From a virus (lineage: Duplodnaviria; Heunggongvirae; Uroviricota; Caudoviricetes): 64,000 bases of DNA. Under the pieces are notes generated by a model. It saw nothing but the letters and a program-made list of their open reading frames with translations. It had not been told where the DNA came from and did not search any database. The DNA is taken from positions 15,712 to 79,711 of the IMG/VR virus record IMGVR_UViG_3300047476_001238. One strand, written 5' to 3'. A program made the position numbers and the translations under genes. Shown here piece by piece: positions 1 through 56,675 of the stretch. Each line of letters opens with the position of its first letter. Position 1 is the stretch's first letter.

Positions 1-1
1 T

Positions 2-313: not shown

Positions 314-556
314 TTAGTTTTTTACCTTTTCGAAAAATTCAGCTGGTTGTTTATTGAGTCCATCAAACCCACCTGGAATTAACTCGTATCCGTGAAAGAT
401 TTGTGGAACACTTCTAAGGCCTTTATCTAACAACATCTGCCGCGATTCTATATCGTTCTCGATGTTAATTTCGTTAAATGGCACCCCTTTACTTTCTAGT
501 AATTGTTTTGCTCTAACGCAAAACGGGCAATTGTTTTTGGAATATATTGTAAGCAT
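314..556 (-). CDS. nrdC: glutaredoxin-like protein (T4 NrdC-type redoxin)
   Basis: 80 aa with a CPFC active-site motif near the N-terminus and glutaredoxin-fold spacing (VPxI...GGFD). Located in the nrd operon. Confidence 0.8.
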   Translation of the reverse strand: MLTIYSKNNCPFCVRAKQLLESKGVPFNEINIENDIESRQMLLDKGLRSVPQIFHGYELIPGGFDGLNKQPAEFFEKVKN

Positions 557-585
557 AGTGTTTTATTATAATGAATGTTTTGTAT

Positions 586-1719: not shown

Positions 1720-2567
1720 ATCCTGCTTGATATATCTTGGCGAATCTTATCAAAATTTATTACAGTGTTGGTATGAAATTCAAATAATATGCTATCATCA
1801 AGTCTTGGACACGCATCAACATAACAATTATAATCAACAGAATTTAATTTTGACATTTCGTTGCTGTCGTTGATGTTTCTTATTTCGCATCTACGCTGTA
1901 CAGTTCTATCTATGTTTCTTCTGGTCAAAACATAATTACCAAGAATTTCGTATTCGCTGAACCATATAAGATTGGTTTCCGCTTCTCTGTGACAGTTGTC
2001 AATGATTGCGTCAAGAAAATGTTTACCGGTCCGTTGTTCTAATTGCTGTCGCATTGCGACCCAATCTTCTTTGAGGAATGGTAAAAATTCAGTGATAAAA
2101 CAATCGGTGGTTTGTCGTGGTATGCCCAGGCTGTTTTCTATAACAGAGTAGTACCCAGGACTGTGTGTAGTGTCAGGAAGAACAAAAAAATTGGGTGTAT
2201 TGCCGTTGAAGCATTGGTATGGGCGTATTGCAAATGTGTCGGGATCTTGTATAAGAATTTTTTCATCTTTGAAATAATCTAGACATGCAATTTTCAAAGC
2301 CTGTTGTCTAAGCCATGTTCCTCTGTAATCACCAGGTTGATCCCAATTTAGAATTTCTGGGTATGCATCAATTAATTCTTGATCATTTACATAAACAAAT
2401 CTACTGGGATCGTCTACGTACTTTCTTAGAGTTTCGTTATAATGCTTTTCGGCAATATTACTTACGATATAAGTTTTATCTATACCTTCAAGAAAGTGAT
2501 CAAACTGAAAGGACATGATTGCATGTCCCATCCGATATCCGCCAACAAATACAGCTCTAGCCGTCAA
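1716..2567 (-). CDS. hypothetical protein (283 aa) inside the nrd operon
   Basis: ORF coupled to the nrdB stop (2564-2567 overlap). No diagnostic motif. Confidence 0.5.
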
Positions 2568-3691
2568 AGACTAAATCCTTTAAACGTGTTGGAGTCTACG
2601 TCTTGTTTTGTCCCGCCAATCACATAACTTGAAATCTCTGTTTCTTGCGGTGCCACTTGCACTTCTGCTCCAGCGATCCATTTGGCTGTCCATGGTAGCG
2701 GATTGGATCCTGGCTTCATACCACAATTCAATCCAACTGCGGTCATGCGCTTGCAGGTTAACCAATCTACATATTGACTCAGCAACTGCTCATTGAGACC
2801 AATCATGCTGCCGTCTTTGAACAAGTAGTGTGCCCAGGCTTTTTCTTGTGCGGCTGCTGCCAAAAACATTGCTTCACATTCTGCACGAGTTTCTTCTTTG
2901 ATAGAAGCATAATCAGGATCATCCTGAGGTAGCAATTTGAGCAGGGTTTGCGTGGACCCTAAGTGTACGTTTTCGTCTCGTGCAATCAGTTTAATGATCT
3001 TGGCATTGCCTTCCATCTTCTTTAGTTCTGCAAATGCCCACGAACAAGCAAAGCTCACATAAAAACGGATACCTTCTAGTGCGTTGACACTGTTAAGACA
3101 CAGCCATAGTTTTTTCTTCAAGTCTCGTTGGCCTACAACGATTTCTTTGCCGTTAACAGTGTGACGGCCATACCCTAACAGTTTATAATACTGTACAGTT
3201 TCAATAAGATCATCGTAGTACTTGCTGATATCTTTTGCACAATCTACAATTTCTTTTATATCCGTGAGCTCATCAAATATAACACTAGGGTCACTATAAA
3301 CATTGCGGATAATGTGAGTATAGCTACGGCTATGAATCGTTTCGTTAAAGGCCCAGGTTTGAATCCAAGTTTCGAGCTCAGGAATAGTAGCGATGGGAAG
3401 AAAAGCAAGATTGGGACTACGACCTTGAACACTATCCAAAAGGATTTGTCGCTTAAGATTACTTGTGAAAATATGCTGTTCATGTTCGGTCAATTCCTTG
3501 AAGTCTTTTGCATCTCGAAGTACATCTACTTCTTCTGGTCGCCAGAAGAATCCCAATTGTTTATCTGTCAGTTTGTCAAACTGTCTATACTTTAGTACAT
3601 CATATCGTTGAATAGGATGTGCGCCCGATTCGTCAAGAAATGCCAAAGCCTGTGTGTGATTATTTTTATTATTAATGTTAAAGACGCTCAT
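2564..3691 (-). CDS. nrdB: ribonucleotide reductase class Ia beta subunit
   Basis: 375 aa colinear with E. coli NrdB: [55 protein letters not shown]. Confidence 0.92.
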
Positions 3692-3693
3692 TG

Positions 3694-4143
3694 TTATTTT
3701 CCAACCTCGTAAGTTTTTTCAAATATTTCTCTTTTTACTACACCGTAGTCGTTGGGACCGTGGCGGACAATATAGTCATTGCCTGCTGTATAGTTTAGCA
3801 CTTCGCCCCAACTGGTTGCAACTGATCCATCATGATCGGCCAATTTGGCCAATTTTATTATTTTCTTGGGATAACAAATACCGTTGCCTGCGTCATCTTT
3901 TAATTCACGAAACTTTTCTGGAGGGATAGGGTATTGTTCGCCCTTGGGTCCGGTAAGGATATAATAACCTCGTTTATAGTTTACCGGGCCTTCGAGAGTT
4001 TGAATAACGCCATCCTCTTCGGCTATTTCGTATTGCTCAGGGTTGGGTTTTTTATAGGTTTTAAAAGACCCGTCTTTGAACCAATCATCAGTGATACCAA
4101 TAGCGGTATCCTCAAACAGATTGATATATTTTCGTAGATTCAT
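3694..4143 (-). CDS. PGDYG-domain-like protein
   Basis: 149 aa with a C-terminal [12 protein letters not shown] stretch resembling the PGDYG motif family. Sits between nrdA and nrdB. Confidence 0.5.
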
Positions 4144-4150
4144 AACTCTA

Positions 4151-6454
4151 TTAGATTACGCAACTGTCGCAGTCTTCTTGACTGGTGTATTCTGTTTCTT
4201 CTACTGGTTTAGAGTCAACTAACTTGTCGATGTTGATTTCGCCTTGACCATCAAAGGTGTTAAAATAATACAGTTGCTTCAATCCATACTTGTAGCACAT
4301 TAAAAGATGCTGTAGCATTTCCGACATAGGAATCTTTTCATCATCGTAGTACTGTGGATTGTAGGAAGTATTTACACTGATACCTTGATCAATATATTTT
4401 TGTAGCACTGCACACAGCTTGAGATAGCCCTCGGGGCTGACTTGATCCCAAAGCAGTTCATATTTGTTCTTTAAACGACGATATTCAGGAACTACCTGAC
4501 GTAATGCGCCGTGTTTGCTTTGCTTTACTGACACATACGAACGTGGTGGCTCAATTCCATTAGTAGCATTACTGATCTGAGCACTTGTCTCTGCAGGCAT
4601 CAAAGCCATTAGTGTGGCATTGCGCTGACCAGTACGTTGGATTTGTTCGCGTAGTGATTGCCAAGGCATACGCTCTTGGTAGGGCACCAATTCGTCCACA
4701 TCTCGTTTACGTGTATCAATAGGTAATACGCCGTTTGCACTCTTTAAATCCTTCCAGCGAGTGCAAGCGCCTTGTTCTTCGGCGAGGTCTGCAGAAGCTT
4801 TGATCAAATAATACGACCAAGCTTCTGCATACTCGTCAACTAAAGCTAACGCCTTAGGGTCACTATAACTAACATCATTCTTAGCTAGGAAGTAGGCAAA
4901 ATTAATAATTCCAACCCCAATTGGCCTAAACTCTTCGGTCGCTAAACGTGCTGCAAGGATCGGATAATTTTGATACGACAACAATGCATCCAATCCTCTT
5001 ACCGCCAACCGACACATCTTTTCGAAGTCATGTGGGCTTTTTACATTGCCCCAATTGATCGCTGATAGAGTACACAGGGCGATCCTACCATCCTCGTCGT
5101 TGACATCTTTTAACGGCACAGTTGGCAAATCAATTTCAGCGCAAAGATTACTCATCTTGATTGGTGCAACTCGTTCATCAAACGGCGAATGCGTGTTTGC
5201 ATGATCGACATTCTGGAGATAGATACGACCAGTATCCTTGCGTTCCTGCATGAATCTACTAAACAAATCAGCAGCCTTGAAAGTTTTCTTTCTCAGCTTG
5301 GTATTACGCTCTGCTCGCTCATATAGCTCTTTGAATCGATCTTGATCATTGAAAAAGGCAGAGTACAGCTCTGGTACATCATTAGGACTAAAGCAGGTAA
5401 TATCGCCACCTGTAATTAGTCTTTCATACATCAACTTGTTAAACTGCACACCATAGTCCATATGGCGTACACGATTGTCTTCGGTTCCTTTGTTGTTCTT
5501 GAGAACAATCAAATCCTCAATCTCGAGGTGCCAGATCGGGTAGTACAAAGTAGCGGCGCCATTACGGACACCCCCTTGCGAACAACTACGAGTGGCGCTT
5601 TGGAACAGCTTGTAAAAGGGTATAACCCCGGTGTGGTAAGCATCTCCATTTCGGATTGGGCTTCCGAGTGCTCGTATTCTACCTGCACCGATTCCAATGC
5701 CGGCTTTTTGGCTGACGTACTTAACAATGGAAGAAGTAGTAGCATTAATACTGTCAAGACTATCGTCCGTTTCAATAAGAACGCAACTACTGAATTGCTT
5801 TTGCGGAGTGCGTACACCGGCCATAACAGGAGTAGGCAAGCTGATATCGTGTAAGCTAATGGCGTCATAATAATCTTTTACCCATTGTAATCTTGTTTCT
5901 CGCGGATAATTTTGAAATAATGTTGCGGCGATAAGCAGATATGCCACTTGCGGTGTTTCGTATATCTCATTGGTCACACGATTTTGTACAAGATATTTAC
6001 CGCGCCATTGTTCCATGGCCACATAGGTAAAGTTCTCGTCTCTGTCGTGGTGAATAAATGAATTCAGTCGTGCCCACTCGTCCTCACTGTAGGCGGCGAG
6101 AAGTCCTGTATCGTAAAATCCCGACTCCACATTCTTTTTTACAAGATCTATCAAGGGCCAAGGCTGGTAGTCACCATAAACCTGTTTGCGAAGATGATAG
6201 TTAATCAATCTTCCTGCTACATATTGATAGTTTGGGGTTTCTTCGCTGATTAGATCAGCGGCTGACTTAATTAATGTTTCTTGGATATCCGATGTACGGA
6301 TTCCGTTATAAAATTGAATATGACTTTTTATTTCTACTTCACTTGCACTAACTCCAGTGATCCCTTCAGTTGCCCAAAACACCACTTTATGTAGTTTTTC
6401 TAAATCTAGTGTTTCTTTACGTCCGTCTCTTTTAGTTATTTGAATCTGCGTCAT
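4151..6454 (-). CDS. nrdA: ribonucleotide reductase class Ia alpha subunit
   Basis: 767 aa with an N-terminal ATP-cone (VTKRDGRKETLDLEKL), the catalytic NLCAEI and CSQGGVRNGAAT loops, and a C-terminal Cys pair. Length is typical of NrdA. Confidence 0.93.
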   Translation of the reverse strand: MTQIQITKRDGRKETLDLEKLHKVVFWATEGITGVSASEVEIKSHIQFYNGIRTSDIQETLIKSAADLISEETPNYQYVAGRLINYHLRKQVYGDYQPWPLIDLVKKNVESGFYDTGLLAAYSEDEWARLNSFIHHDRDENFTYVAMEQWRGKYLVQNRVTNEIYETPQVAYLLIAATLFQNYPRETRLQWVKDYYDAISLHDISLPTPVMAGVRTPQKQFSSCVLIETDDSLDSINATTSSIVKYVSQKAGIGIGAGRIRALGSPIRNGDAYHTGVIPFYKLFQSATRSCSQGGVRNGAATLYYPIWHLEIEDLIVLKNNKGTEDNRVRHMDYGVQFNKLMYERLITGGDITCFSPNDVPELYSAFFNDQDRFKELYERAERNTKLRKKTFKAADLFSRFMQERKDTGRIYLQNVDHANTHSPFDERVAPIKMSNLCAEIDLPTVPLKDVNDEDGRIALCTLSAINWGNVKSPHDFEKMCRLAVRGLDALLSYQNYPILAARLATEEFRPIGVGIINFAYFLAKNDVSYSDPKALALVDEYAEAWSYYLIKASADLAEEQGACTRWKDLKSANGVLPIDTRKRDVDELVPYQERMPWQSLREQIQRTGQRNATLMALMPAETSAQISNATNGIEPPRSYVSVKQSKHGALRQVVPEYRRLKNKYELLWDQVSPEGYLKLCAVLQKYIDQGISVNTSYNPQYYDDEKIPMSEMLQHLLMCYKYGLKQLYYFNTFDGQGEINIDKLVDSKPVEETEYTSQEDCDSCVI

Positions 6455-13612: not shown

Positions 13613-14065
13613 TTAAATTGTATTTAAGTTCATTCTGCCAGTTTTAAAGTATATGTTTTTTATAGCGCCATATGGATAAAAAATTGGTAATATAAACCTT
13701 GCAGTTTCATCTAGCCCACAAATTATAGGCACTTGAGCAAAATCTTTGTCCAATCCGCCAACCGGATCACGGTCTTCAAGAAATACATCTTCATGTTCGA
13801 CCCCAAAGCAGAAAATCCATGCTCGCTGCTTGCCATAGTACATCTCACCGAAGCCGCTGGTTTCATCGATGTCAAATTCTGCACAAATTGGTCCTTCAAT
13901 CAACTGTGGCTGTGATCTAAGACCTATTACCTGTAATACTGTTTCCCAATTTCTTTGTTGATCCCGTTGAACTTCTTGGCCAGGTCTGTGTCTGGTGATA
14001 CCAGTAGCAGTAATATCAACTAATGTTATGCCAGTATAAAATTTCATATAGATATTTATAGCCAT
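13613..14065 (-). CDS. hypothetical late protein (150 aa)
   Basis: TATAAATA (14053-14060) lies only 5 nt upstream of the ATG, on a T4 late-type promoter. Confidence 0.5.
   Translation of the reverse strand: MAINIYMKFYTGITLVDITATGITRHRPGQEVQRDQQRNWETVLQVIGLRSQPQLIEGPICAEFDIDETSGFGEMYYGKQRAWIFCFGVEHEDVFLEDRDPVGGLDKDFAQVPIICGLDETARFILPIFYPYGAIKNIYFKTGRMNLNTI
14053..14060 (-). promoter_or_regulatory. T4-type late promoter TATAAATA
   Basis: Exact octamer 5 nt upstream of the ATG at 14065. Confidence 0.5.
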
Positions 14066-14093
14066 AAAAAAAGCAGACCAAAGTCTGCTTTTT
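14066..14093. terminator. bidirectional rho-independent terminator (AGCAGAC-CAAA-GTCTGCT)
   Basis: Perfect 7 bp stem with flanking A and T runs. Nearly identical copy at 14516-14546. Confidence 0.65.
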
Positions 14094-14110
14094 GTTGTAA
14101 TTTTTAAAAA

Positions 14111-14461
14111 TTACGATACTACAAAACTAGTTCCGTCTGTCACAGTTGCGCTACCTAAGTTAACAGAACCTTTCTTGGTGCCAATAGCCTGTAGTGCTGT
14201 CTGTAGTGCGCTAGCTGCTGGGGCATTTACACCATCGCAGATAATGCTAATAATGCCGCTAGTAGCATGAGCAAAATATGCTAGTACTGGTGGGAATGCC
14301 TGAATGATTGCTTCATAAGCTTCGTTTGCTGCATCATCTTCTGATGACAAGTTAACGCCAGCATCAACTACATATAACTTAACGCTTTGACCAGGAACGA
14401 TCAAAGTTCCAGTTGTACCTGCAAAAAAGTAGCCTGCGCTACGATCTAAACCAATTGCCAT
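14111..14461 (-). CDS. small Ala/Gly/Thr-rich late protein A (116 aa), probable abundant virion-associated protein
   Basis: CATAAATA late-type promoter plus a strong AGGAGA RBS upstream, flanked by rho-independent terminators. Paralogous architecture with the next gene. Confidence 0.65.
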   Translation of the reverse strand: MAIGLDRSAGYFFAGTTGTLIVPGQSVKLYVVDAGVNLSSEDDAANEAYEAIIQAFPPVLAYFAHATSGIISIICDGVNAPAASALQTALQAIGTKKGSVNLGSATVTDGTSFVVS

Positions 14462-14515
14462 TTTATTTCTCCTAAATTATTTGCGTGTTATCGCATGTTA
14501 ATATTTATGCTGGTT
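14462..14515 (-). promoter_or_regulatory. late promoter (CATAAATA) plus conserved 5'UTR with AGGAGA RBS, copy 1 of a duplicated unit
   Basis: About 90% identical over roughly 55 nt to 15010-15061. Confidence 0.55.
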
Positions 14516-14546
14516 ATAAAAAAAGCAGACCGAAGTCTGCTTTTTA
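14516..14546. terminator. bidirectional rho-independent terminator (AGCAGAC-CGAA-GTCTGCT)
   Basis: Perfect stem flanked by A and T runs. Confidence 0.65.
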
Positions 14547-14562
14547 ATTAACTTAAATTTAA

Positions 14563-15009
14563 TTAAGCTAGTTTGATACCGCCAGTTGACGATACAGTAG
14601 CCAATGCTGGGAATACGTTGCCGTATGCACCAATGTTAGCACCAGCTGTACCATTGTGGGTTAGTGTGCGAATCTGAGCTTGTAGATCAGCATCTGACCA
14701 TGAGCTACGCTCTACTAGAACGCTTAGTTGTGCGCTTGAACCAGCTGCATCAACTTGGTATGCAATAACAGATGCGTTTGTAGAAATGGTCTTGATTAGG
14801 GTTTCTACTGCACCTACTAGACCTGCACCGCTTGGCTCGCCTAGTTCTGCTGCTAAGTTAGCAGTTGCACCTAAGGTACCAATCTTGATTGCACTGATAG
14901 GTGAAGCGATACCTGTATTAATGATCTTTGCATTTGCAAAAAATTGACCTGCATCAACGTTGTTTACACCAGCACTATTGCCGTGTACTTTTTGGACTCC
15001 AATTGCCAT
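14563..15009 (-). CDS. small Ala/Gly/Ser-rich late protein B (148 aa), paralogous unit to protein A
   Basis: Exact TATAAATA late promoter plus the same AGGAGAAATAAAATG leader as gene A. No Cys, low complexity. Confidence 0.65.
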   Translation of the reverse strand: MAIGVQKVHGNSAGVNNVDAGQFFANAKIINTGIASPISAIKIGTLGATANLAAELGEPSGAGLVGAVETLIKTISTNASVIAYQVDAAGSSAQLSVLVERSSWSDADLQAQIRTLTHNGTAGANIGAYGNVFPALATVSSTGGIKLA

Positions 15010-15061
15010 TTTATTTCTCCTTAATTATTTGCGTATTACCGCATGCTAATATTTATACCAA
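15010..15061 (-). promoter_or_regulatory. late promoter (TATAAATA at 15050-15057) plus conserved 5'UTR, copy 2
   Basis: Exact T4 late octamer and the same leader and RBS as copy 1. Confidence 0.6.
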
Positions 15062-30316: not shown

Positions 30317-31476
30317 TAACTTGGTTTAGTTTTTTTATTATTATAAACTTCTGTTGCGAAGTACACAACCTTTTCGGCTCGTTGCAGCAACAAAGTTTTT
30401 TCCCCGCCATGCATCATGCCTTGTCCACTAACAAGCAAAGGAATAGGTTGATCCCATGCGGTCATATACTTATTAAAGTAAATTACTTTTTTATGCACAG
30501 TGGGAATCTCTTTTTTAAGATCTTTGGCTTGATAAATGTCGTCGGGATCAAAGTACCGTGATACAAAATTTTTGTAGAGACGTCCGCTTAGATCCGGCTC
30601 GTATACATATATCGGAAATCGTCCAGTGACCTGAGCATAATCAATCAAGTCTGTGTAAATGCTGTCATCGCTGTCAGGTCTAAACTTGGATTCTTGGGCT
30701 GTCATTAAATTACAAATTCTAGCATTGTGCCGTGTTGCTGTATCATCCAAGATTGATTGATCTACGGTGTATCCATATATGGCAGAATTATCAACTAGTG
30801 TATCAACATTGCTGGAATCAAACCCGCAGTAATTGCGGATGGCATCAATTAAACTGCTTGATGCGTTTTGTATTTCGAGACCTGCTTCTGTCTTAATCAG
30901 TTTGATTGCATAAGGAGTTTGTTCACAGCGAACAACTTCTTGTAAGAGAGATAAGAATTCTTCACCAATTTCAAATTCGTGATTTGCGGCAAATCCGTTT
31001 GCTGCCACAACATTGACCTCGGTGATAGCCAAGCGCCAAGCTCGAGCATTGCTGTCAAATGCCCAAGTGCCTTGACTGATCTTGGCAAGGTCTCGCAAGT
31101 CATCAATCAGTTTTGTATCATACGGAAACTTTAAAACGATATGATCGTTTTCAACATACAGCAGCTTCCTACGATCAATTGTTCGTATGCCGTGTCTGTA
31201 TTGCGGAGTTCGTATTGGATCAATACTGATCTCTAATTTTTCCAACTGCTTTTGATACTTTTGTATTATCTTTACTGCCAACTCGGCTTGTCGATCAGTC
31301 AATGCCCGACCGCTTTGTGTAGCTGCGCTCATACTGGCCAACACTTGCACATCGTATCGAGCCAAACTAACAATTGGTTGAGTGCTATCAAACAGTCCGT
31401 AAATTTTACCCGTGTTCGGATCACGGTCGCCGTTGATAACTTCTAGATAATCTTCAACATAGGTAAATGTTTTCAT
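30316..31476 (-). CDS. hypothetical protein (about 386 aa)
   Basis: Start set at MKTF because a perfect TTGACT-N17-TATAAT promoter lies within the longer ORF extension. Confidence 0.5.
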   Translation of the reverse strand: MKTFTYVEDYLEVINGDRDPNTGKIYGLFDSTQPIVSLARYDVQVLASMSAATQSGRALTDRQAELAVKIIQKYQKQLEKLEISIDPIRTPQYRHGIRTIDRRKLLYVENDHIVLKFPYDTKLIDDLRDLAKISQGTWAFDSNARAWRLAITEVNVVAANGFAANHEFEIGEEFLSLLQEVVRCEQTPYAIKLIKTEAGLEIQNASSSLIDAIRNYCGFDSSNVDTLVDNSAIYGYTVDQSILDDTATRHNARICNLMTAQESKFRPDSDDSIYTDLIDYAQVTGRFPIYVYEPDLSGRLYKNFVSRYFDPDDIYQAKDLKKEIPTVHKKVIYFNKYMTAWDQPIPLLVSGQGMMHGGEKTLLLQRAEKVVYFATEVYNNKKTKPS

Positions 31477-31482
31477 AAGAAT

Positions 31483-31511
31483 ATTATAGCATATAACAAA
31501 ATCAAAGTCAA
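31483..31511 (-). promoter_or_regulatory. sigma70-like early promoter (TTGACT-N17-TATAAT), leaderless-type
   Basis: Read directly from the sequence. The -10 ends 6 nt before the ATG at 31476. Confidence 0.6.
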
Positions 31512-31580
31512 AAAAATGCCCCACCGAAGCAGGGCAAAGAACCGAAGTAAAAGGAGCTAACAAAAACTTCGGGTAAAACC

Positions 31581-32384
31581 TTATTTGTTTAACATTAGGC
31601 CAGTGAAGTTGCTAGGAACCACAATGGTCTGCACTCGTCCACTCTTGATACCTTCACTGATATTGAGCATGGCCTGTGCCTGCATAAACGCAATTGAACT
31701 AGAACTGTTGTTGGCCAGTGCTGCCATACGGCGTGATTCGGCTTCAGCAGTTTTAACTTCAACTTCTTTCTGCTTGAGTTCGTTCTTGGCACGAACAAGA
31801 GCGTTGGCACTTTCAACTACACTGTCAGCTGGCACAACATTACGGATCAGGACCTGGCTGATAGTAATCGAACCGTCAAGTTTTTCGTCGGCAAGATTCT
31901 TTTGAATTTCTTCTTGGATAAACTTTTCCATATCCGAACGGTTGTCTGCCATGTCCAGTGCTTCATACTTACGTGCAGCCTTGTAAATAGCATTACGGGC
32001 ATTTTGCACAACATAATTGTACATCACATAAGTGTCGCCACGGAACTCAGCATGAAAGGCCTTGTTCTTGGTCGAATACAGTTCTGCTACACTCTGAGGA
32101 TTAATATTATAAACGACCACGGCATCAAGGTCCTTCATGGTACTGTTGTCTTTGGCTACCGGAGTCATGTTCTCTAGCACCACGTTGACATCTTTGATTG
32201 GGAATGTGAGCACATCGCCAATAATGGTTTGATTAAAACTACCTGGCAGTAGTTCGCCTTGTTGGATCTGCTTATCAAAGCCAATACGCACACCAACTTC
32301 GCCGGTTTCAACACGAGTACACCCGGTACTCATAACAGCAGCAGCAACAAGAGTAAGAACAGAAAGACTAGCAATACGTTTCAT
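31581..32384 (-). CDS. SPFH/band-7 (stomatin/prohibitin-like) lipoprotein
   Basis: Signal peptide with lipobox MKRIASLSVLTLVAAAVMSTGC and an SPFH-like core with a C-terminal Ala/Glu coiled segment. AAGGAA RBS upstream. Confidence 0.7.
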   Translation of the reverse strand: MKRIASLSVLTLVAAAVMSTGCTRVETGEVGVRIGFDKQIQQGELLPGSFNQTIIGDVLTFPIKDVNVVLENMTPVAKDNSTMKDLDAVVVYNINPQSVAELYSTKNKAFHAEFRGDTYVMYNYVVQNARNAIYKAARKYEALDMADNRSDMEKFIQEEIQKNLADEKLDGSITISQVLIRNVVPADSVVESANALVRAKNELKQKEVEVKTAEAESRRMAALANNSSSSIAFMQAQAMLNISEGIKSGRVQTIVVPSNFTGLMLNK

Positions 32385-32495
32385 TTTATTTCCTTTTAAA
32401 AAACTGTTATCGAGCAACTAGTATTATTACTGCTAATCCAAATGCCAGCAAAGGGTGCCCGGCGAATATCAGGAATAATACTACCAACCAGGCCA

Positions 32496-33524
32496 TTATG
32501 CACTCTTCATGCAAGTGCTTTGTGCCAGTGCCTGCCACTTGGTAGGAAAGCTCTTGTACAGCTGACCAATCTTGATTGCCATACGCAGGCTCATCTCACG
32601 CAAGCGATTCTTGTTGGTATCCATAAACGAGATGATCTCGTCTTGTGCAACTTCGCTGAGTTCAAGATCACTGAACAGTTCGCCACTACGTGCAATTTGC
32701 TTGATACGCAGAACCTTGTCACGCATGGTGTCCAGTGTAAGATCCAGATAGTGGCAGCGTGACTGCAAGGCATCCAGGTGATCCTTGAGCTTCTGGCTCT
32801 TGAGCTTGTCAAACTTGAGGTTGGTAATAAAGATAACCGAACCTTGGAAGTTGAAGCTGTCCGGAATGCCTTCGCTGCGAAGGATACGACTGTCACTCAG
32901 CCACGAAATCTTACGCTTCTTGCCTGAGTCCAGGGCACCTTTCAGCAAGTTCAGTGCAACATCGTCCAGCAGGATTGAATCGCAGTCGTCAAACACAATC
33001 ACGCAGTTTGGATCCGAGTACTTGTACAAGGTTTGATACAAGCCAATAGCACTTGCCGAACCTTTAACTACCTCGGCACGAAGACGTCGGCCAGCAATTT
33101 GATCCAGCAGTGTGGCCTTTTCGATTTCAAGCTCAACACCATAGCTCTTGCCCACGCCAGGAGGACCCGACACAATCATGGCACGGATGTCACCGTTAGT
33201 AGCAGCCTTGGTCATCTCATGCAGGATTTCAAAACGCTCGGCAATCTCAGCCATGCGTTCTTCGTCGGTCTGTTGGCTAGCAACTTCTGCTTGGATGCAT
33301 TCTGGAATTGACACATCGCCTTCGGCGACAAATTCATAATCACTCATGTTGTTTACTTTGACACGGATGTCTTCAGGAAATCCAGGAAACTGACCACCAT
33401 TCTTGACAGTGACATAACCACCTTTGGCGCCACTACGGAATTGGTCTACCAATTGAAATACACGACCGGATACATCCGTGGTACGGTAGGCACCGGCTTT
33501 GATACGAACAAATGCGTTAGACAT
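32496..33524 (-). CDS. AAA+ ATPase (MoxR/CobS-like)
   Basis: Walker A GPPGVGKS, Walker B VIVFDDCD, and an about 100 aa N-terminal extension. Confidence 0.7.
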   Translation of the reverse strand: MSNAFVRIKAGAYRTTDVSGRVFQLVDQFRSGAKGGYVTVKNGGQFPGFPEDIRVKVNNMSDYEFVAEGDVSIPECIQAEVASQQTDEERMAEIAERFEILHEMTKAATNGDIRAMIVSGPPGVGKSYGVELEIEKATLLDQIAGRRLRAEVVKGSASAIGLYQTLYKYSDPNCVIVFDDCDSILLDDVALNLLKGALDSGKKRKISWLSDSRILRSEGIPDSFNFQGSVIFITNLKFDKLKSQKLKDHLDALQSRCHYLDLTLDTMRDKVLRIKQIARSGELFSDLELSEVAQDEIISFMDTNKNRLREMSLRMAIKIGQLYKSFPTKWQALAQSTCMKSA

Positions 33525-33569
33525 ACAAGCTCCTTGTTATAAAGTTGAAGTATTTTTGTTATTTTTAAT

Positions 33570-33598
33570 ATTATACAATAATGCCCAATTATGGTCAA
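33570..33598 (-). promoter_or_regulatory. sigma70-like early promoter TTGACC-N17-TATAAT for the AAA+ ATPase gene
   Basis: Exact hexamers. A GGAG RBS lies 5 nt before the ATG. Confidence 0.6.
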
Positions 33599-33601
33599 CT
33601 A

Positions 33602-33952
33602 TTACTTGACGAGCGCATACGGCGCATTCCATTTACCAACATGAACATTGATATAGTGTGAACAATGAAAGTAATCGGTTTGTGCATCCGAATGATCAAA
33701 ATAATCAGGGCCGTACATGGCCGGGATAACTTCGCTCAAGAATTCTTTAGCGCGGCCAGTAAAGTGTTCATGGTACCAGTACGGATTAATTTGGACATAG
33801 TCGCCACCAAAGTCAATGTCGCCTTGCTTGATAGTCAGCACCAGGGTGCTATGGTTATGGACAGAAAGAAAAGCCTTGACGTTGTATTTTTTGCAAATTG
33901 CCTTGATAGTAGGTGCCAGTTTTGCTTTGTGTTCTTGACTCATGTAAGCCAT
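33602..33952 (-). CDS. hypothetical protein (116 aa)
   Basis: Preceded by an early promoter at 33985-34013. Confidence 0.5.
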   Translation of the reverse strand: MAYMSQEHKAKLAPTIKAICKKYNVKAFLSVHNHSTLVLTIKQGDIDFGGDYVQINPYWYHEHFTGRAKEFLSEVIPAMYGPDYFDHSDAQTDYFHCSHYINVHVGKWNAPYALVK

Positions 33953-33984
33953 TTGTCGCGCTCCTTATTAATTACTATATCAAT

Positions 33985-34013
33985 ATTATAGCAAAATGGT
34001 GAATTATGGTCTA
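33985..34013 (-). promoter_or_regulatory. early promoter (TAGACC-N17-TGcTATAAT, extended -10)
   Basis: Member of the repeated CCATTTTGYTAYAAT promoter family. Confidence 0.5.
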
Positions 34014-34048
34014 CCAAAAAAAGTGTTGCTAAAAAGCAACACTTTTGT
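34014..34048. terminator. bidirectional rho-independent terminator (GTGTTGC-loop-GCAACAC)
   Basis: 7 bp perfect stem flanked by an A-run and a T-run. Confidence 0.6.
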
Positions 34049-34054
34049 TAACAA

Positions 34055-34240
34055 TTATGCAACTCGGGTATAACTTGCGCGGTAGAAACATTCGCTATCA
34101 CCGTCCGCATATTCCTCGCAGAACTTTTTAGCTTCAGCTTCGGTTGTAAAGAACTTCTCTCCCATCGGGCGTTGTCCCCAACCACGCTCATATTCAGTCA
34201 TTGTCACTTTGTAAAGGGTACCAACTTGGACTTCGGGCAT
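34055..34240 (-). CDS. hypothetical protein (61 aa)
   Basis: Small ORF followed by the terminator. Confidence 0.35.
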   Translation of the reverse strand: MPEVQVGTLYKVTMTEYERGWGQRPMGEKFFTTEAEAKKFCEEYADGDSECFYRASYTRVA

Positions 34241-34313
34241 TTTGTTCTCCTTTCTATCTACTGTAATTACAGTATAAAGGAAACAGTCTTTTTGGACAAC
34301 CGTTGCTTTTTTG

Positions 34314-34577
34314 TTAATCTTTTAGAGCATGCCAAACTTCGGGATCCATACCCAGGTAAATGCGGTACAGCAACTTATTACGCCAAACGCTAAAGCCATT
34401 GATTTTGTTTTCGAACCAAATTAATAAGTCGTCTCTGAACCACAAAGGATTCAACAAGAACACGCAGAGCAGAATAAAAATAGGCAGGAACATTACAGCA
34501 AGGATGCTCCAATGTGTGAAACGCATCCTCCACCAGTTCCCGCCTTCGGGGGTCATTGATACAGTTTGTTTTTTCAT
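34314..34577 (-). CDS. hypothetical membrane protein (87 aa)
   Basis: Two hydrophobic helices. Confidence 0.4.
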   Translation of the reverse strand: MKKQTVSMTPEGGNWWRMRFTHWSILAVMFLPIFILLCVFLLNPLWFRDDLLIWFENKINGFSVWRNKLLYRIYLGMDPEVWHALKD

Positions 34578-34776
34578 AGATTAATTGTAGTTTCTATGAA
34601 AAAATTTGTCAAGCAATTTCTCGTGGAGCGTACAGATTAGCTCGCTGCCAGTTCCACAGATCTTTAATCTCGTTAAAGACTGGGCCAAACAAGTAGCCGG
34701 TTTCGACTACACAGGTCTGCCAACCACCGATAACACTTTTGCATTGGATATTCATGAGCTTGTCCTTATAATCGTA

Positions 34777-35022
34777 TCAATCAGCGATCAAAATTTTGAA
34801 CATTTTGAGACTGGCGTTGTCTCCGGGAATTTGCACTCGGGTTGCAAACTTGACTCCGTCCTGCACCGGAATCTCCAGCGTGAGCCAAGTATTCAAAAAA
34901 CCAGGCCGGGCAGTAGGAGCAACTTTGATATTGCGAACCACAGCATCACGGCGGCCTGCGGCACTTGTGTATTGAATTTTGGTACCAATTGCTAGTTCCA
35001 TCATCTGCTCCTTGTTATTCAC
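34777..35022 (-). CDS. hypothetical protein (81 aa)
   Basis: Preceded by an early promoter at 35032-35060. Confidence 0.4.
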   Translation of the reverse strand: MNNKEQMMELAIGTKIQYTSAAGRRDAVVRNIKVAPTARPGFLNTWLTLEIPVQDGVKFATRVQIPGDNASLKMFKILIAD

Positions 35023-35031
35023 TATACCAAT

Positions 35032-35060
35032 AGTATAACAAAATGGATCTTTACGAACAA
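35032..35060 (-). promoter_or_regulatory. early promoter (TTGTTC-N17-TGtTATACT)
   Basis: Same conserved spacer GATCCATTTTG as neighbouring promoters. Confidence 0.45.
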
Positions 35061-35066
35061 CCGTTT

Positions 35067-35249
35067 TTAGGCGGCTTTGAGAAGAAAAATGTTGCTTGTT
35101 TGCAAACTTGCTTCAAGTTTTGAACGATCAAGAGCAAACATGATTGCTAGATCTTTAATTGCAAATTCAGCAACTATTTGATTCTTGTATTCTACACGAT
35201 AAAGAGTTGCAATTTTATTAACTGTTGCACCTGTCCCAAATTGGCCCAT
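35067..35249 (-). CDS. hypothetical protein (60 aa)
   Basis: Small ORF downstream of the promoter at 35280-35308. Confidence 0.35.
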   Translation of the reverse strand: MGQFGTGATVNKIATLYRVEYKNQIVAEFAIKDLAIMFALDRSKLEASLQTSNIFLLKAA

Positions 35250-35279
35250 TGCTGACTCCTTATTAATTACTATACCTAT

Positions 35280-35308
35280 ATTGTAGCAAAATGGATCTTT
35301 TTGGTCAA
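35280..35308 (-). promoter_or_regulatory. early promoter (TTGACC-N17-TGcTACAAT)
   Basis: Exact -35 and an extended -10. Confidence 0.55.
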
Positions 35309-35461
35309 CTGTTGCTTATTTGTTAACTTTACGACTGAACCGCCATATGGGTCCAATTTCAGGATGCCCGCGGTCGCCGCCTACTGCTATTTGTGCATCA
35401 AGTGGCGCACCATAACTGTAGTAATTCACATAATCGGCGATTTTTCTATTGCTGGTGCGAA

Positions 35462-35938
35462 TTAAACATAGTCCCGCGTCGTTGGTGACCATGTATTGTA
35501 CCATTCCAAGTTCGTCGCGGTCAATGAAGAGCATACCATATTTATAGCTCTATCAATTTGGTCCGTGGGTACACCGTTTTCTTGATAACCTTCAGTGACC
35601 ATTTCCAAATAACCGGAGCCCGGCTCTTGTACATAACTTTGGTCGTTCATTTGATATACCAAAGCTTTTACAGTTTGATCGCCGGTATGCACTCGAACTT
35701 TGAAACGAGTATAGTAGTAGGGATAGCCTTCAAGGGCATCAAGTGCTCGTAAATCCCGATCAGTCAATTCCCAAAGAACTCCATAGCAGATTGAGCCCGG
35801 AGACTTTTCAACGTCAGCATGAGTTCTAAATTTAAACTCATAATCGTTGATCCAGGCAGGACCCAGGCAAACAGCCGTCGGACAACGACTTCGCATTTGC
35901 TCCAAGTTGGTATTCATTCCGTATGCAAAATATTTCAT
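35462..35938 (-). CDS. gamma-glutamyl cyclotransferase (GGCT/AIG2)-like protein
   Basis: N-terminal YFAYGMNTN matches the GGCT-family YFAYGSNM motif. Promoter TTGACA-N17-TACACT at 35948-35976. Confidence 0.65.
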   Translation of the reverse strand: MKYFAYGMNTNLEQMRSRCPTAVCLGPAWINDYEFKFRTHADVEKSPGSICYGVLWELTDRDLRALDALEGYPYYYTRFKVRVHTGDQTVKALVYQMNDQSYVQEPGSGYLEMVTEGYQENGVPTDQIDRAINMVCSSLTATNLEWYNTWSPTTRDYV

Positions 35939-35972
35939 AATACGCCAAGTGTATAAGAAATATTCTTAATTG

Positions 35973-36758
35973 TCAACCACCAAAAGTTTGTTGCAATTTT
36001 GTTAAGTCTGCACAAGTATAGGTTTGGTAGCTATACTCCAGGTGCTTGGGAAACGGAATTTGTTCAATTAAGGCACCGTATTGATTGGCTTTTTCTTGAG
36101 CGACATCTAGGAACGATCGTGTTTGGCCTGTTCCAATATTCCATACACCACTTTCTTCGATGTCACAATTTATAAATTGAAATTGTACGCCTAGCACTTG
36201 GTCCACAGGAACAAAGTCTCTTTTAAAATTTTCGCTTCCTTCAAACACTTTTATAATTCCAGTGGATTGTGCCTGAACAGCAAATTGATACTGAGGGCTA
36301 GCTTGTGTTCCTTTGTGCATTTCGTTTGCACCATACACATTAAAGTATCTAAATCCTTGGCACCGAACATGCGTCGGATTCTTTTCAACATAGTGTTCGA
36401 ATAGATATTTTGACCACGCATACGGGCTGCGAGGATCCACGGGTGCGGATTCTCTAAAATCTGTGCCAAGGCCATACACGCTCGCTGAGCTTGACCATTG
36501 AAGATTAACATCATGTTTCCTACATTCCTCGTATAACCAAATAGAGAAGTCTACATTTTGGCGCATGACTTTGGCAACATCACGTTCTGTAGTGCTACTA
36601 ATAGCACCAAAATGAAATACCCAATCCAGGCCTTCAATTCTAGGTAGAACACGCTCATCCCACTCGTATGTGTAGATTTCATGGACTCCCATCTTTTGCC
36701 AAAAACTTACAGCATGACTGCCGATGAAGCCTCTACTTCCTGTTATTAATATTTTCAA
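35973..36758 (-). CDS. hldD: ADP-L-glycero-D-manno-heptose 6-epimerase
   Basis: Colinear with E. coli HldD/RfaD: ITGSRGFIGSH, SSSASVYG, YAWSK, FRYFNVYG...KVFEGSENFKRDFV. Confidence 0.85.
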   Translation of the reverse strand: MKILITGSRGFIGSHAVSFWQKMGVHEIYTYEWDERVLPRIEGLDWVFHFGAISSTTERDVAKVMRQNVDFSIWLYEECRKHDVNLQWSSSASVYGLGTDFRESAPVDPRSPYAWSKYLFEHYVEKNPTHVRCQGFRYFNVYGANEMHKGTQASPQYQFAVQAQSTGIIKVFEGSENFKRDFVPVDQVLGVQFQFINCDIEESGVWNIGTGQTRSFLDVAQEKANQYGALIEQIPFPKHLEYSYQTYTCADLTKLQQTFGG

Positions 36759-43775: not shown

Positions 43776-43831
43776 ATCATTCCTTGAGGTTATTGACATG
43801 CTATTTTAATAAATTAAACAAGAAAAGTCAA

Positions 43832-56428: not shown

Positions 56429-56675
56429 CTAGATCCAACTCTTCTACAATAGGAGCAACTGACCAATCGGTATTATCTCTAATATCTTTAATCATTTCGT
56501 CACAAGCCTGTTGTGCCTGATCTTTGTTGACGTAAGCTTTTTCGAAAATACGATTTCCGTCGGCAAACTCTGCCATGGCAATATAAATTTTTTTCATGTT
56601 ATAATTATAAACGATTTGAAAATTATTGTCAATGAACTTTGGCATCAGTGCAGCTTTTACACAAACTGTCTGCAC
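56418..56675 (-). CDS. hypothetical protein (85 aa)
   Basis: Coupled ORF. Confidence 0.35.
   Translation of the reverse strand: MQTVCVKAALMPKFIDNNFQIVYNYNMKKIYIAMAEFADGNRIFEKAYVNKDQAQQACDEMIKDIRDNTDWSVAPIVEELDLVDE

Follow-up and report, generated by a model that had tools for sequence, protein, structure and literature searches.

Composite early promoter cassettes have been described in T4-type phages as PeSLs (promoter-early stem-loop) (Arbiol et al. 2010, PMC2839356; Comeau et al. 2014, PMC4122927). The early 'uber' promoters of T4, which combine UP, -35, TGn and -10 elements (Hinton 2010, PMC2988021; Nolan et al. 2006, PMC1524935), have 'additional regions of consensus' (PMC2988021), and in the T7 A1 and A2 promoters the beta'-zipper contacts a Z-element at -22 to -18 (AACCT and AACAT, respectively) (Yuzenkova et al. 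2011, PMC3173786). For its part, PA5oct is transcribed by the host RNAP and has 32 promoters with TTGAC and TATAATA motifs (Lood et al. 2020, PMC7318152). The window analysed here, a stretch of 64,000 nt, comes from a large uncultured phage whose nearest cultured relatives are the PA5oct-like and Phosso jumbo myoviruses (40 to 54% protein identity), and in its hyperplastic region a cassette of ~60 to 80 nt is repeated before small accessory genes. The sequence features make it probable that these are PeSL-like early promoter cassettes which are optimised for the host RNA polymerase and which recombination has homogenised. They add a new member to a class of elements known from T4-type phages and are not evidence for a new transcription factor.

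PeSLs and the present cassettes are both composite, joining a stem-loop, an A/T-rich tract, a sigma70-like -35/N17/-10 promoter, a Shine-Dalgarno sequence and a start codon. Both occur in many copies, concentrated in hyperplastic regions before small ORFans, and in both systems the gene-content differences between related phages map to the cassettes. However, the sequences are unrelated and the phage clade is another one (distant PA5oct/Phosso relatives); the spacer and the 20-nt leader are much more stereotyped here, a leaderless class exists in parallel, and the hairpin, a PeSL hallmark, is optional, which counts against the reading. With T4 early promoters the cassettes share near-consensus sigma70 elements, an extended -10, an A/T-rich upstream tract, a conserved G just before the -35, the additional consensus regions, frequent location before novel ORFs and a presumed ability to out-compete host promoters just after infection. 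The T4 -35 is GTTTAC, whereas here it is GG-T[T/A]GACC, accompanied by CCA at -21 to -19, and T4 has no counterpart of the fixed leader. The additional A that follows the -10 hexamer in PA5oct (TATAATA) is also kept, in 80 of 96 cassettes. A search of PA5oct DNA gave few exact matches and revealed neither the cassette nor a conserved spacer or leader. The cassette was found in none of 185,579 species genomes and in no cultured phage, with no bacterial genome matched.

A repeat search of the window yielded a 58-nt family of four copies that spans the Shine-Dalgarno sequence, the -10, the spacer, the -35 and beyond. Two cassettes with the exact box and three diverged copies lie on the minus strand between 33.5 and 35.3 kb (C1 to C5 in Table 1), all on the coding strand and immediately upstream of ORFs. 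The order of parts is an optional hairpin, GG, T[T/A]GACC, a 17-nt spacer, TGc-TATAAT, a start A predicted 7 nt downstream of the -10, the leader GTATAGTAAYTAAYAAGGAG and ATG. The leader consensus, AUAGUAAYUAAYAAGGAGC-N5-7-AUG, is AU-rich with a strong Shine-Dalgarno sequence; the predicted 5'UTRs showed no structure (z ~0), and an Rfam search of the leaders gave no family match. The upstream hairpin, of the GTTGC-loop-GCAAC type, was clear in 51 of 199 cassettes (~26%) and in one of the five window copies. C2 is the reference copy of repeat family D1, and C1 was found in both D1 and D2. C3, which has neither the CCA box nor TGn, appears in the D1 (67%) and D2 (78%) entries, and its diverged form recurs in contigs L075 and L009. 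In C5 the TG does not form a canonical TGn because it adjoins the hexamer directly; this promoter is kept at the orthologous position in syntenic contigs.

Table 1. Cassettes and other sigma70-like promoters in the window (all on the minus strand)
Feature	Coordinates	-35 and -10	Upstream, spacer and box	Start, leader and gene	Score (bits)
C1	35247..35327	TTGACC 35308-35303; TGc + TACAAT 35285-35280	Upstream GTTAACAAATAAGCAAC, holding stop of g35534 and GCAACaGTTG mini-palindrome; spacer contains AAAGATCCATTTTG; box 35297-35287	Predicted start A 35273; leader GTATAGTAATTAATAAGGAG 35275-35256; ATG 35249, 60-aa ORFan	38
C2	34999..35065	TTGTTC 35060-35055; TGt + TATACT 35037-35032	Box GATCCATTTTG 35049-35039	Predicted start A 35025; leader GTATAGTGAATAACAAGGAG 35027-35008; ATG 35004 or 35001, ~74-aa ORFan, then 48-aa ORF 34609-34755	25
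C3 (diverged)	34238..34318	TTGTCC 34299-34294; TATACT 34276-34271	Upstream ATTAACAAAAAAGCAACgGTTG	Leader GTAATTACAGTAGATAGAAAGGAG; ATG 34240 (61 aa)	16.6
C4	33950..34045	GG, TAGACC 34013-34008; TGc, TATAAT 33990-33985	Spacer ATAATTCACCATTTTGC	Predicted start A 33978; leader ATATAGTAATTAATAAGGAG 33980-33961; ATG 33952, 116 aa, phrog_10415, unknown function	43.8 (highest in window)
C4 terminator hairpin	~34045-34016		AAAGTGTTGC-TTTTT-AGCAACACTTT + T-run; -17.4 kcal/mol
C5 (repeat entry D15)	33522..33602	TTGACC 33598-33593; TATAAT 33575-33570	Spacer ATAATTGGGCATTATTG, no CCA, no canonical TGn	Different, longer leader: AU-rich 46 nt, AAGGAG; ATG 33524 (AAA ATPase)	28.5
Leaderless-type	34575..34612	TTGACA 34612-34607, 17 nt, TACAAT 34589-34584	No box	ATG 34577 exactly 7 nt after -10, 87-aa gene; no Shine-Dalgarno
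Leaderless-type	35936..35976	TTGACA 35976-35971; TACACT 35953-35948; no TG	No box; TTGACA overlaps stop codon of epimerase gene	ATG 35938 10 nt after -10, GGACT/AIG2-like gene
Terminator + leaderless-type	31474..31539	TTGACT 31511-31506, 17 nt, TGc, TATAAT 31488-31483	Terminator 31536-31517 + T-run; no box	ATG 31476 exactly 7 nt after -10; 386-aa gene, then helicase
Generic sigma70-like match, outside cassette family	43803..43831	TTGACT-17-TAAAAT	Within 32-nt gap before 57-aa ORF and sugar-nucleotide/glycosyltransferase block	ATG only 4 nt past hexamer	<12
Weak family match, leaderless-type	56595..56636	TTGACA 56632-56627; TATAAT 56609-56604		ATG 56597 7 nt after -10	14.6

The initial annotation had listed at least six minus-strand promoters fitting TTGACN-N17-TAYAAT and one further site, several of them with an identical 11-nt spacer box and a TGn extended -10; both this observation and the interpretation placed on it hold in part. 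The sigma70-like sites do exist, and with at most one mismatch the pattern gave 18 matches in the window versus 4.43 +/- 2.16 in shuffled sequence, a number reached in 0 of 100 shuffles. Nevertheless, the site at 35060-35032 has three mismatches and is recognisable only through its homology to the cassette, and the seventh site, given as 43790-43820, actually lies at 43831-43803. TGn was found in four of the seven sites, and the exact box GATCCATTTTG in two only, a third (34013) matching it at 8 of 11 positions. The box itself is real, but it is part of a longer promoter-plus-leader repeat and not an isolated element. Two further sites, at 34612-34584 and 34299-34271, had been overlooked.

A chance resemblance within AT-rich intergenic DNA has some apparent footing in the window alone: the 18-mer with at most three mismatches gave three matches versus 0.54 expected, a count reached by 2 of 100 shuffles, and the 8-mer CCATTTTG was not enriched overall (four found versus ~2.5 expected). 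In contrast, a weight matrix of the -37 to -5 region, scanned over 1.2 Mb of related contigs plus the window, gave 317 hits versus 2 in shuffled sequence, every window copy stands on the coding strand directly upstream of an ORF, and 96 distinct cassettes keep a fixed register. Chance similarity, for which we retain a practically negligible probability, is thus refuted by the leader-based cassette set, the position conservation and the weight-matrix counts.

A pattern search with the box and the -10 matched nine IMG/VR contigs, eight of them with the whole cassette, while a search with the leader only matched at least 118 IMG/VR stretches, which reduced to 96 distinct contexts; ~93 of these had the same promoter at the same distance. 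The 96 cassettes were picked by the leader alone. In this set the spacer held ~14.7 bits, while the -35 region and the -10 held 10.5 and 10.8 bits, respectively, values that are inflated to some degree because the sequences are phylogenetically related. Conservation well beyond what the sigma70 hexamers need, as originally noted, is therefore borne out. The conserved spacer positions were AA (-27/-26), CCA (-21 to -19), the A/T run and TGc, with counts among the 96 of 84-85 for GG, 93 for T-35, 91 for G-33 and for A-26, 80 for C-21, 81 for C-20, 76 for A-19, 81 for T-15, 78 for G-14 and 88-96 for the -10 positions. Position -23 and the flanks (0.07-0.13 bits, with 0.07 at -23) and -6 to -4 (0.4-0.6 bits) were saturated. 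The commonest forms of -22 to -18 were CCCAT, CCCAA, TCCAT, GCCAA and ACCAT, and the A/T run read TTTT in 46 and AAAT in 25 of the 96.

Judged by its parts, each cassette would most likely be read by the host sigma70 RNA polymerase as a very strong early promoter: the A/T-rich tract, GG, T[T/A]GACC, the exact 17-bp spacer, TGc-TATAAT-A and the start A would be fused to a fixed, unstructured AU-rich leader that carries a strong Shine-Dalgarno sequence. The conserved spacer positions would be explained best by polymerase contacts or DNA-shape requirements. The TG of an extended -10 is read by sigma region 3, and the CCA with the A/T run, at -22 to -16, lies at the position of the beta'-zipper Z-element, the A-tract coming after the -35. 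Thus, extended recognition by the host polymerase, the second option of the initial annotation, fits best. As in the T7 promoters, (c/a)CCA(t/a) at -22 to -18 would belong to strong phage early promoters served by the host polymerase, a likeness drawn here from sequence. The resemblance is partial, and the Z-element effect is modest with an undefined consensus; since that effect is ~2-fold and the consensus 'loose', polymerase contacts alone may not account for the 14.7 bits. That the TAGACC variant of the -35 is as common as TTGACC also counts against the overall reading.

The excess of spacer information over either hexamer would be expected if the box were bound by a dedicated protein, encoded by the phage or injected from the virion, that acts either as a MotA-like activator or as a global repressor of early promoters. 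GG and CCA lie outside the classical sigma70 determinants, the cassette is confined to one uncultured phage clade, and the mechanism of T4 early shut-off is still unknown (PMC2988021). We consider such a protein improbable, however, as the A/T run can be either TTTT or AAAT, leaving a box with neither fixed sequence nor dyad symmetry, and the conserved positions fall on sites that the polymerase is known to contact (TGn and -22 to -18). The box was not found out of promoter register, three of the four CCATTTTG copies in the window lying at the same promoter position, and promoters of the AAA ATPase and other conserved genes in the same phages have no CCA. No candidate DNA-binding protein was identified. 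In T4 middle promoters, the MotA box (a/t)(a/t)TGCTT(t/c)A, centred at -30, replaces the -35, with sigma appropriation by AsiA. In the cassettes, too, a sigma70 -10, in many cases with TGn, is preceded by a conserved element, but they keep a good canonical -35 at 17 bp, place the box at -27 to -13 and have no TGCTT at -30, so that the proposed MotA analogy fails.

The cassette precedes at least 33 unrelated protein families, all of unknown function, 73% of them of 120 aa or less. More than 25 syntenic loci share flanks, epimerase-GGACT-g35534 on one side and AAA ATPase-helicase on the other, with differing sets of cassette-headed ORFs between them. Gene gain, loss and swap in these contigs fall exactly at cassette boundaries: one 'gene plus cassette' unit is missing at the L009 junction and two genes at that of L075, and in L118b the downstream gene is swapped while the upstream flank is kept (27/31). 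Genes are thus exchanged among related phages at cassette boundaries. The repeated 60-nt homology may also act as a recombination substrate, by analogy with PeSLs.

The copying of whole cassettes by duplication and gene conversion could in itself explain the box, which would then have no function of its own and would hitch-hike with the elements that do have one (-35, -10 and ribosome-binding site) as cassettes are homogenised. Spacers differed at 7.2 of 21 positions within a locus versus 9.35 between loci (0 of 2,000 permutations). The exact 14-mer AAAGATCCATTTTG is common to two adjacent window copies, whereas different spacers stand in the orthologous promoters of L118 and L009; the identity of 11 to 14 nt is, judging from these comparisons, explained by cassette duplication or gene conversion. 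Exact CCA accompanied the canonical leader in 67% of cases, versus 24% for leaderless promoters and 21% for other leaders, so that joint inheritance of box and leader, or a functional connection between the two, contributes. Other promoters of the same phages presumably work without the box. Even so, hitch-hiking as the whole explanation is unlikely, if not negligibly so: at least 33 gene families are preceded by CCA, AA and TG at 76-91 of 96 in cassettes saturated at -23 and -6 to -4, orthologous promoters that differ at -24 to -22 retain CCATTTTGC, and leaderless promoters show C-21/C-20 in 51-55%, versus 7-20% in gene-less controls.

The association of CCA with the leader also bears on the TATAGT in that leader. 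This hexamer follows TATAAT at a distance of 11 nt, and roughly half of the copies have TGg in front of it. Box and TATAGT could form a second, overlapping promoter offset by ~11 bp, the box serving as -35 and TGgTATAGT as extended -10; some box variants are indeed -35-like (TTGCCA, TTCACC) at the right distance of 17-18 nt. Alternatively, TATAGT could be a sigma70-dependent promoter-proximal pause element and the box the place where a Q-like antiterminator would load, as at lambda PR'; terminators stand between some units, and a Z-like element upstream of a -10-like sequence boosts sigma-dependent pausing (PMC3173786). Either form seems very unlikely. As a -35, the box offers in its conserved CCA no more than the weak 3' half, conservation is lowest at the critical TTG positions (T 59, T 36 and G ~12 of 96), the window variant GATCCA fits TTGACA at two of six positions, and a transcript from the second promoter would start at the Shine-Dalgarno sequence itself. 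The leaderless class, moreover, keeps its C-21/C-20 enrichment without any TATAGT. Lambdoid PR' has a Q-binding element in the spacer and a -10-like pause element in the initial transcribed region, and the cassettes likewise have an element between -35 and -10 and TATAGT at about -1 to +5. This resemblance is purely formal: Q-type promoters normally occur once per genome and not in dozens of copies, no Q homologue was found, and no defined terminator lies just downstream.

The remaining promoters of the initial list are leaderless types without the box. In this sister class of the host-polymerase cassettes the AUG itself would stand at +1, giving a leaderless mRNA. Of 294 promoters, 52 place the ATG exactly 7 nt downstream of the -10, and in 44 of these it opens an ORF of at least 40 codons. 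Orthologues of the 35976 promoter in L035, L009 and L025 are also of the leaderless type. Early expression of the glycan operons from this promoter family, as first proposed, is not supported: no family cassette occurs between 36 and 43.8 kb; only the generic site at 43831 precedes the gene block, and the 35976 promoter lies downstream of it. The weak match at 56632 falls outside the interval originally reported.

A 58-nt unit present in four copies is the largest repeat family of the entire window in a repeat search. Read on the minus strand, the unit takes in AAGGAG, the -10, the spacer, the -35 and bases further upstream. Thus, the box, the conserved spacer segment between the -35 and the -10, forms part of a larger repeated cassette of promoter plus leader, whose 3' end carries a Shine-Dalgarno sequence and a start codon, AAGGAG(C)-N5-7-ATG. 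The six sigma70-like sites that the initial annotation had placed on the minus strand at 31.4-36.1 kb were all found. A seventh, outlying site exists too, but at 43831-43803 and not at 43790-43820, and two sites had been overlooked (34612-34584 and 34299-34271). With up to one mismatch, TTGACN-N17-TAYAAT occurs 18 times in the window, compared with 4.4 +/- 2.2 times in shuffles. The 11-nt box GATCCATTTTG, described as identical in several promoters, is exact at 35297-35287 and 35049-35039 but nowhere else (a third site matches at 8/11 positions), and the extended -10 is a canonical TGn in four of the seven sites listed.

Membership in the cassette family was assessed with a weight matrix covering positions -37 to -5 and built on related sequences. 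All five strong matches, the copies C1 to C5, are confined to a single 1.7-kb stretch of the 64-kb window, and all five carry a T[T/A]GACC-N17-TATAAT-type promoter. The sites at 31511, 34612, 35976, 43831, 38534 and 48949 lie outside the family by this matrix.

Promoter sites, repeat copies and start regions in the window (in the weight-matrix rows, the position is that of the first base of the 33-nt match, which begins 4 nt before the -35)
Feature	Position	Strand	Basis
Sigma70-like site TTGACT-17-TATAAT	31511-31483	minus	sequence reading of 31.4-36.1 kb
Sigma70-like site TTGACC-17-TATAAT	33598-33570	minus	sequence reading of 31.4-36.1 kb
Sigma70-like site TAGACC-17-TATAAT	34013-33985	minus	sequence reading of 31.4-36.1 kb
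Sigma70-like site TTGTTC-17-TATACT	35060-35032	minus	sequence reading of 31.4-36.1 kb
Sigma70-like site TTGACC-17-TACAAT	35308-35280	minus	sequence reading of 31.4-36.1 kb
Sigma70-like site TTGACA-17-TACACT	35976-35948	minus	sequence reading of 31.4-36.1 kb
58-nt repeat copies	33961-34018, 34247-34304, 35008-35065, 35256-35313	minus	repeat search
Family site (C4)	34017	minus	weight matrix, 43.8 bits
Family site (C1)	35312	minus	weight matrix, 38.1 bits
Family site (C5)	33602	minus	weight matrix, 28.5 bits
Family site (C2)	35064	minus	weight matrix, 25.1 bits
Family site (C3)	34303	minus	weight matrix, 16.6 bits
Weak family site	56636	minus	weight matrix, 14.6 bits
Leaderless-type starts, 7 nt	56632-56595, 34612-34575, 31511-31474	minus	ATG-to-(-10) distance
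Leaderless-type start, 10 nt	35976-35936	minus	ATG-to-(-10) distance
Repeats of second kind of cassette	14451-14508 / 14999-15056	minus	
Repeats of second kind of cassette	14064-14093 / 14516-14545	minus	

The proposal that these promoters drive the glycan genes was not supported: no family cassette lies within the block at 36-43.6 kb. The generic site at 43831 is the sole one preceding this block, and that at 35976 sits downstream of it. The TATAAATA motif is not enriched in the window (6 observed versus 4.7 expected). The block itself is operon-like on the minus strand, with overlapping genes assigned by Pfam to sugar-nucleotide and glycosyltransferase functions: two NAD-dependent epimerases/dehydratases, a cytidylyltransferase-like protein, a cupin, a PfkB-family kinase and a GT9 heptosyltransferase. 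Such a gene set resembles a phage-borne ADP-heptose or nucleotide-sugar pathway.

The exact box plus -10 was found in nine IMG/VR contigs, eight of which contain the entire cassette before different genes. In order to sample the family without bias for the spacer, IMG/VR was searched with the leader GTATAGTAAYTAAYAAGGAG alone. This yielded at least 118 stretches and, among the matches listed, 96 distinct 115-nt contexts, in about 93 of which the promoter recurs at an unchanged distance from the leader. Chance similarity is thereby excluded, and the cassette is a real, non-random and widely distributed regulatory element. The proteins encoded behind the cassettes belong to at least 33 unrelated families, and 73% of these proteins are no longer than 120 aa; comparison with Pfam and PHROGs revealed no function and no DNA-binding candidates.

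Cultured phages lack the cassette, and blastn with its consensus returned chance matches only (Staphylococcus, crAss-like phages). Megablast of the 31-37 kb region against 50,697 phage records (cultured plus GenBank) gave no matches. The closest cultured relatives at the protein level are Sinorhizobium phage Phosso (helicase, 54% identity) and PA5oct-like jumbo phages (51% identity in the helicase and 40% in the AAA ATPase); the many protein matches to T4-like phages are weaker than these. PA5oct relies on the host RNA polymerase, with TTGAC/TATAATA promoters (PMC7318152). In the 41 kb around its AAA ATPase gene, there are two generic TTGAC-N17-TATAAT sites, and the conserved spacer and leader are absent. 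Among 185,579 species-representative genomes, the leader had five matches, none with the promoter, and gave no pointer to a host or prophage.

The consensus of the 96 leader-selected cassettes is numbered from the A lying 7 nt after the -10, the assumed start (+1). An A/T-rich tract at -42 to -38 is followed by GG at -37/-36 (84/96 and 85/96) and by the -35 hexamer T[T/A]GACC (T 93/96, G 91/96, C 87/96, C 82/96). In the spacer, A-27 (78/96) and A-26 (91/96) are conserved, position -23 is free to vary (0.07 bits), and C-21 (80/96), C-20 (81/96) and A-19 (76/96) precede an A/T-restricted stretch at -18 to -16, which leads into T-15 (81/96), G-14 (78/96) and C-13 (68/96). The A/T run reads TTTT in 46/96 and AAAT in 25/96. 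Each position of the -10 TATAAT is kept in 88 to 96 of the cassettes, and A-6 in 80/96; then come three variable bases, GTATAGTAAYTAAYAAGGAG, C, N5-7 and ATG. The flanks past -46 and past the Shine-Dalgarno sequence hold 0.13-0.30 bits per position. Since the spacer sums to 14.7 bits, compared with 10.5 for the -35 region and 10.8 for the -10, the claim of a spacer conserved beyond the needs of sigma70 holds for the family as a whole, although the conserved part is AA...CCA-W3-TGc and the GATCCA form occurs in only 4/96. As for -35 variants, TAGACC (A at -34) is found in 32/96 cassettes versus 31/96 for TTGACC, with TTGTCC third (11/96); the window carries TAGACC at 34013-34008.

To compare promoter classes, promoters in the same contigs were picked by their hexamers only, excluding the retrieval patterns. 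Exact CCA at -21 to -19 was present in 67% of those with the canonical leader, 24% of the leaderless ones, 21% of those with other Shine-Dalgarno-containing leaders and 2% of matches with no gene behind them. Similarly, C at -21/-20 reached 84-87% with the canonical leader, 51-55% in the leaderless class and 7-20% in gene-less matches. Therefore, the box is a real preference of functional promoters, and it is strongest where the canonical leader accompanies it. At the conserved AAA ATPase gene, CCA is missing from the promoter, both in the window and in the majority of orthologues.

Pure hitch-hiking of the box would account for the identical 11-mer of the window, but it leaves unexplained the position-specific conservation beside saturated positions, and we consider it unlikely. 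The initial annotation had proposed, as one of its options, an analogy with T4 MotA, in whose middle promoters TGCTT centred at -30 replaces the -35. This analogy is not supported: the cassettes retain the -35 at 17-bp spacing and lack TGCTT at -30. The few window ORFs scanned gave no match to motA or asiA. A MotA-like or repressor-type factor acting at the box is kept alive by the very high information content of the spacer; nevertheless, it is quite improbable, given that the -35 is retained, that the A/T run flips and has no dyad symmetry, and that the conserved positions coincide with polymerase contact points.

A -10-like TATAGT lies at about -1 to +5, which, together with the conserved spacer, formally recalls lambda PR'/Q; unlike in that system, a single genome holds many cassettes, and a Q homologue was not seen. 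A partnership of box and TATAGT, either as a tandem promoter or as a sigma-dependent pause with Q-like loading, would account for the association of CCA with the leader. However, the TTG half of a -35 is absent from the box, and the enrichment of C-21/C-20 persists in the leaderless class, where TATAGT is absent, so that such a partnership has only a slight probability. It is also very unlikely that the spacer (AA...CCA-W3-TG) and the TATAGT at the transcript start form a dedicated control site through which a phage-encoded or injected factor acts on all cassettes at once. Such a factor might repress or activate early promoters globally, or be a Q-like antiterminator loaded at a sigma-dependent pause; if so, large phages would have a novel means of switching dozens of early units in concert. 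On present evidence, a new transcription factor is not indicated.

Three further candidates were discarded. As the main explanation, a second -35 in the box was rejected because conservation is lowest at its TTG positions and the variant of the window agrees with TTGACA at only 2/6 positions. A palindromic operator was rejected because the AAAAAG(A/G)TCCTTTTT variant is palindromic and the AAAT class is not, the dyad thus not being conserved. Finally, an inverted copy of the box in one contig (L006) lies within coding sequence and is not kept in orthologues, and was regarded as coincidental.

Of 294 distinct promoters, 52 have an ATG that begins precisely 7 nt past the -10, and 44 of these 52 lead into ORFs of 40 codons or more. 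Another peak is seen at 10 nt (15/15 open long ORFs), and the adjacent positions are nearly empty. By this register, the predicted transcription start is the A at the 7-nt position. Starts at 7 nt, or at 10 nt in a minority, lack a Shine-Dalgarno sequence, and leaderless mRNAs are predicted for this promoter class. In the leadered class, the predicted +1 is the A of GTATAG, giving an AU-rich 5' untranslated region of 27-29 nt, predicted to be unstructured (z about 0 versus shuffles). Rfam covariance models run over 30-45 kb at E <= 1 gave no matches to the leader. In the automatic calls for the source contig of the window, two genes seem to begin too far upstream: GTG 35022 is inside the conserved leader, and TTG 31563 precedes a terminator and a promoter. 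Judged by how the cassettes are built, ATG 35004/35001 and ATG 31476, respectively, are the likelier starts.

More than 25 loci syntenic with the window were found in IMG/VR. They are flanked by epimerase-GGACT-g35534 on one side and by AAA ATPase-(SPFH present or absent)-g31476-helicase on the other (the g-numbers denote genes), and between these flanks they hold a variable set of small ORFs, nearly each preceded by a cassette. Insertions, deletions and replacements between these loci map to the cassettes. In the junction sequences, L009 passes from the end of g35534 through a single cassette to the start of g35003, missing exactly g35249 plus one cassette; L075 has a cassette joined directly to g34755; and L118 keeps the upstream flank of C2 (27/31) with another gene behind the cassette. 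A further presence/absence polymorphism adjoins the region: the SPFH/Band 7 gene at 31581-32417 (and 32407-32538), between the AAA ATPase gene and g31476, is carried by the window, L075 and L018/L102, and most other syntenic contigs, L009, L118 and L025 among them, lack it. The AAA ATPase of the window is also encoded on a 25-kb JGI contig of sample 3300043425.

Spacers differ at 7.2 of 21 positions within a locus versus 9.35 of 21 between loci, a difference reached by none of 2,000 label permutations. It is owing to concerted evolution that a 14-mer is identical in two neighbouring window copies and not in orthologues elsewhere. An example of lineage-specific homogenisation and very dense packing is positions 1-6000 of a 349-kb jumbo-phage contig (IMGVR_UViG_3300034104_005687), where at least nine cassettes in about 6 kb all carry the spacer variant TTCCCAATTTG. 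Upstream of the cassettes, GCAAC occurs in 78/199 compared with 10 in shuffles, a TTGC-N-GCAA hairpin in 51/199, and the minimum free energy is -10.8 versus -8.6 kcal/mol; in the window, a terminator hairpin is clear before C4 only. Upstream hairpins of the GTTGC-loop-GCAAC type are therefore enriched yet optional.

Structure, breadth, start-site register and a tie to gene gain and loss were all observed here for an element whose best-supported reading is a composite cassette like the promoter-early stem-loops (PeSLs) of T4-type phages. Its promoter would be a maximal-strength start for the host sigma70 polymerase, tied to an optimised translation-initiation region; repeated before accessory ORFans, the cassettes would double as recombination substrate, and the spacer positions would act by polymerase contacts or DNA shape. 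Like PeSLs, the cassettes occur in many copies in a hyperplastic region, adjoin small ORFans and join promoter, Shine-Dalgarno sequence and ATG. All the structural traits of PeSLs are present except a universal hairpin (PMC4122927, PMC2839356), and the cassettes have no sequence similarity to published PeSLs. In T4 early promoters, UP, -35, TGn and -10 elements are accompanied by "additional regions of consensus", and a G is conserved just ahead of the -35 (PMC2988021, PMC1524935); the cassettes unite such features in a UP-like A/T tract, -35, TGn, -10 and extra consensus positions. The Z-element (AACCT in T7 A1, AACAT in T7 A2) is contacted by the beta' zipper of RNA polymerase (PMC3173786), and (c/a)CCA(t/a) of the cassettes occupies the same -22 to -18 positions, the sequence being a partial match only (ACCAT, CCCAT, CCCAA). 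The cassette belongs with phage early "uber" promoters and PeSL cassettes, a known kind of element, and has an unusually information-rich spacer.

The signature GG-T[T/A]GACC-N17(AA..CCA-W3-TGc)-TATAAT-A-N3-GTATAGTAAYTAAYAAGGAG, or with ATG exactly 7 nt after the -10, is a precise, easily searchable mark by which presumed early units of accessory genes can be recognised across a widespread clade of large, uncultured phages. It can serve for gene-start correction, prediction of leaderless mRNAs and the marking of hyperplastic gene-exchange regions. The spacer, with about 15 bits and centred on the beta'-zipper contact region, offers a natural data set of roughly 100-200 variants, with which the share of promoter spacers in recognition by the polymerase could be tested.

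At 14040-15060 on the minus strand, the window holds another kind of duplicated regulatory cassette, whose two copies are 93% identical. Its elements are a (T)ATAAATA-type motif, a leader of 40 nt containing a small hairpin, and AGGAGAAATAAAATG. Two paralogous genes of 116 and 148 aa (MAIG...) lie behind the copies, both followed by the common terminator AAAAAGCAGACTT.GGTCTGCTTTTTTTAT, and a late-type transcription unit appears to have been duplicated in tandem here.
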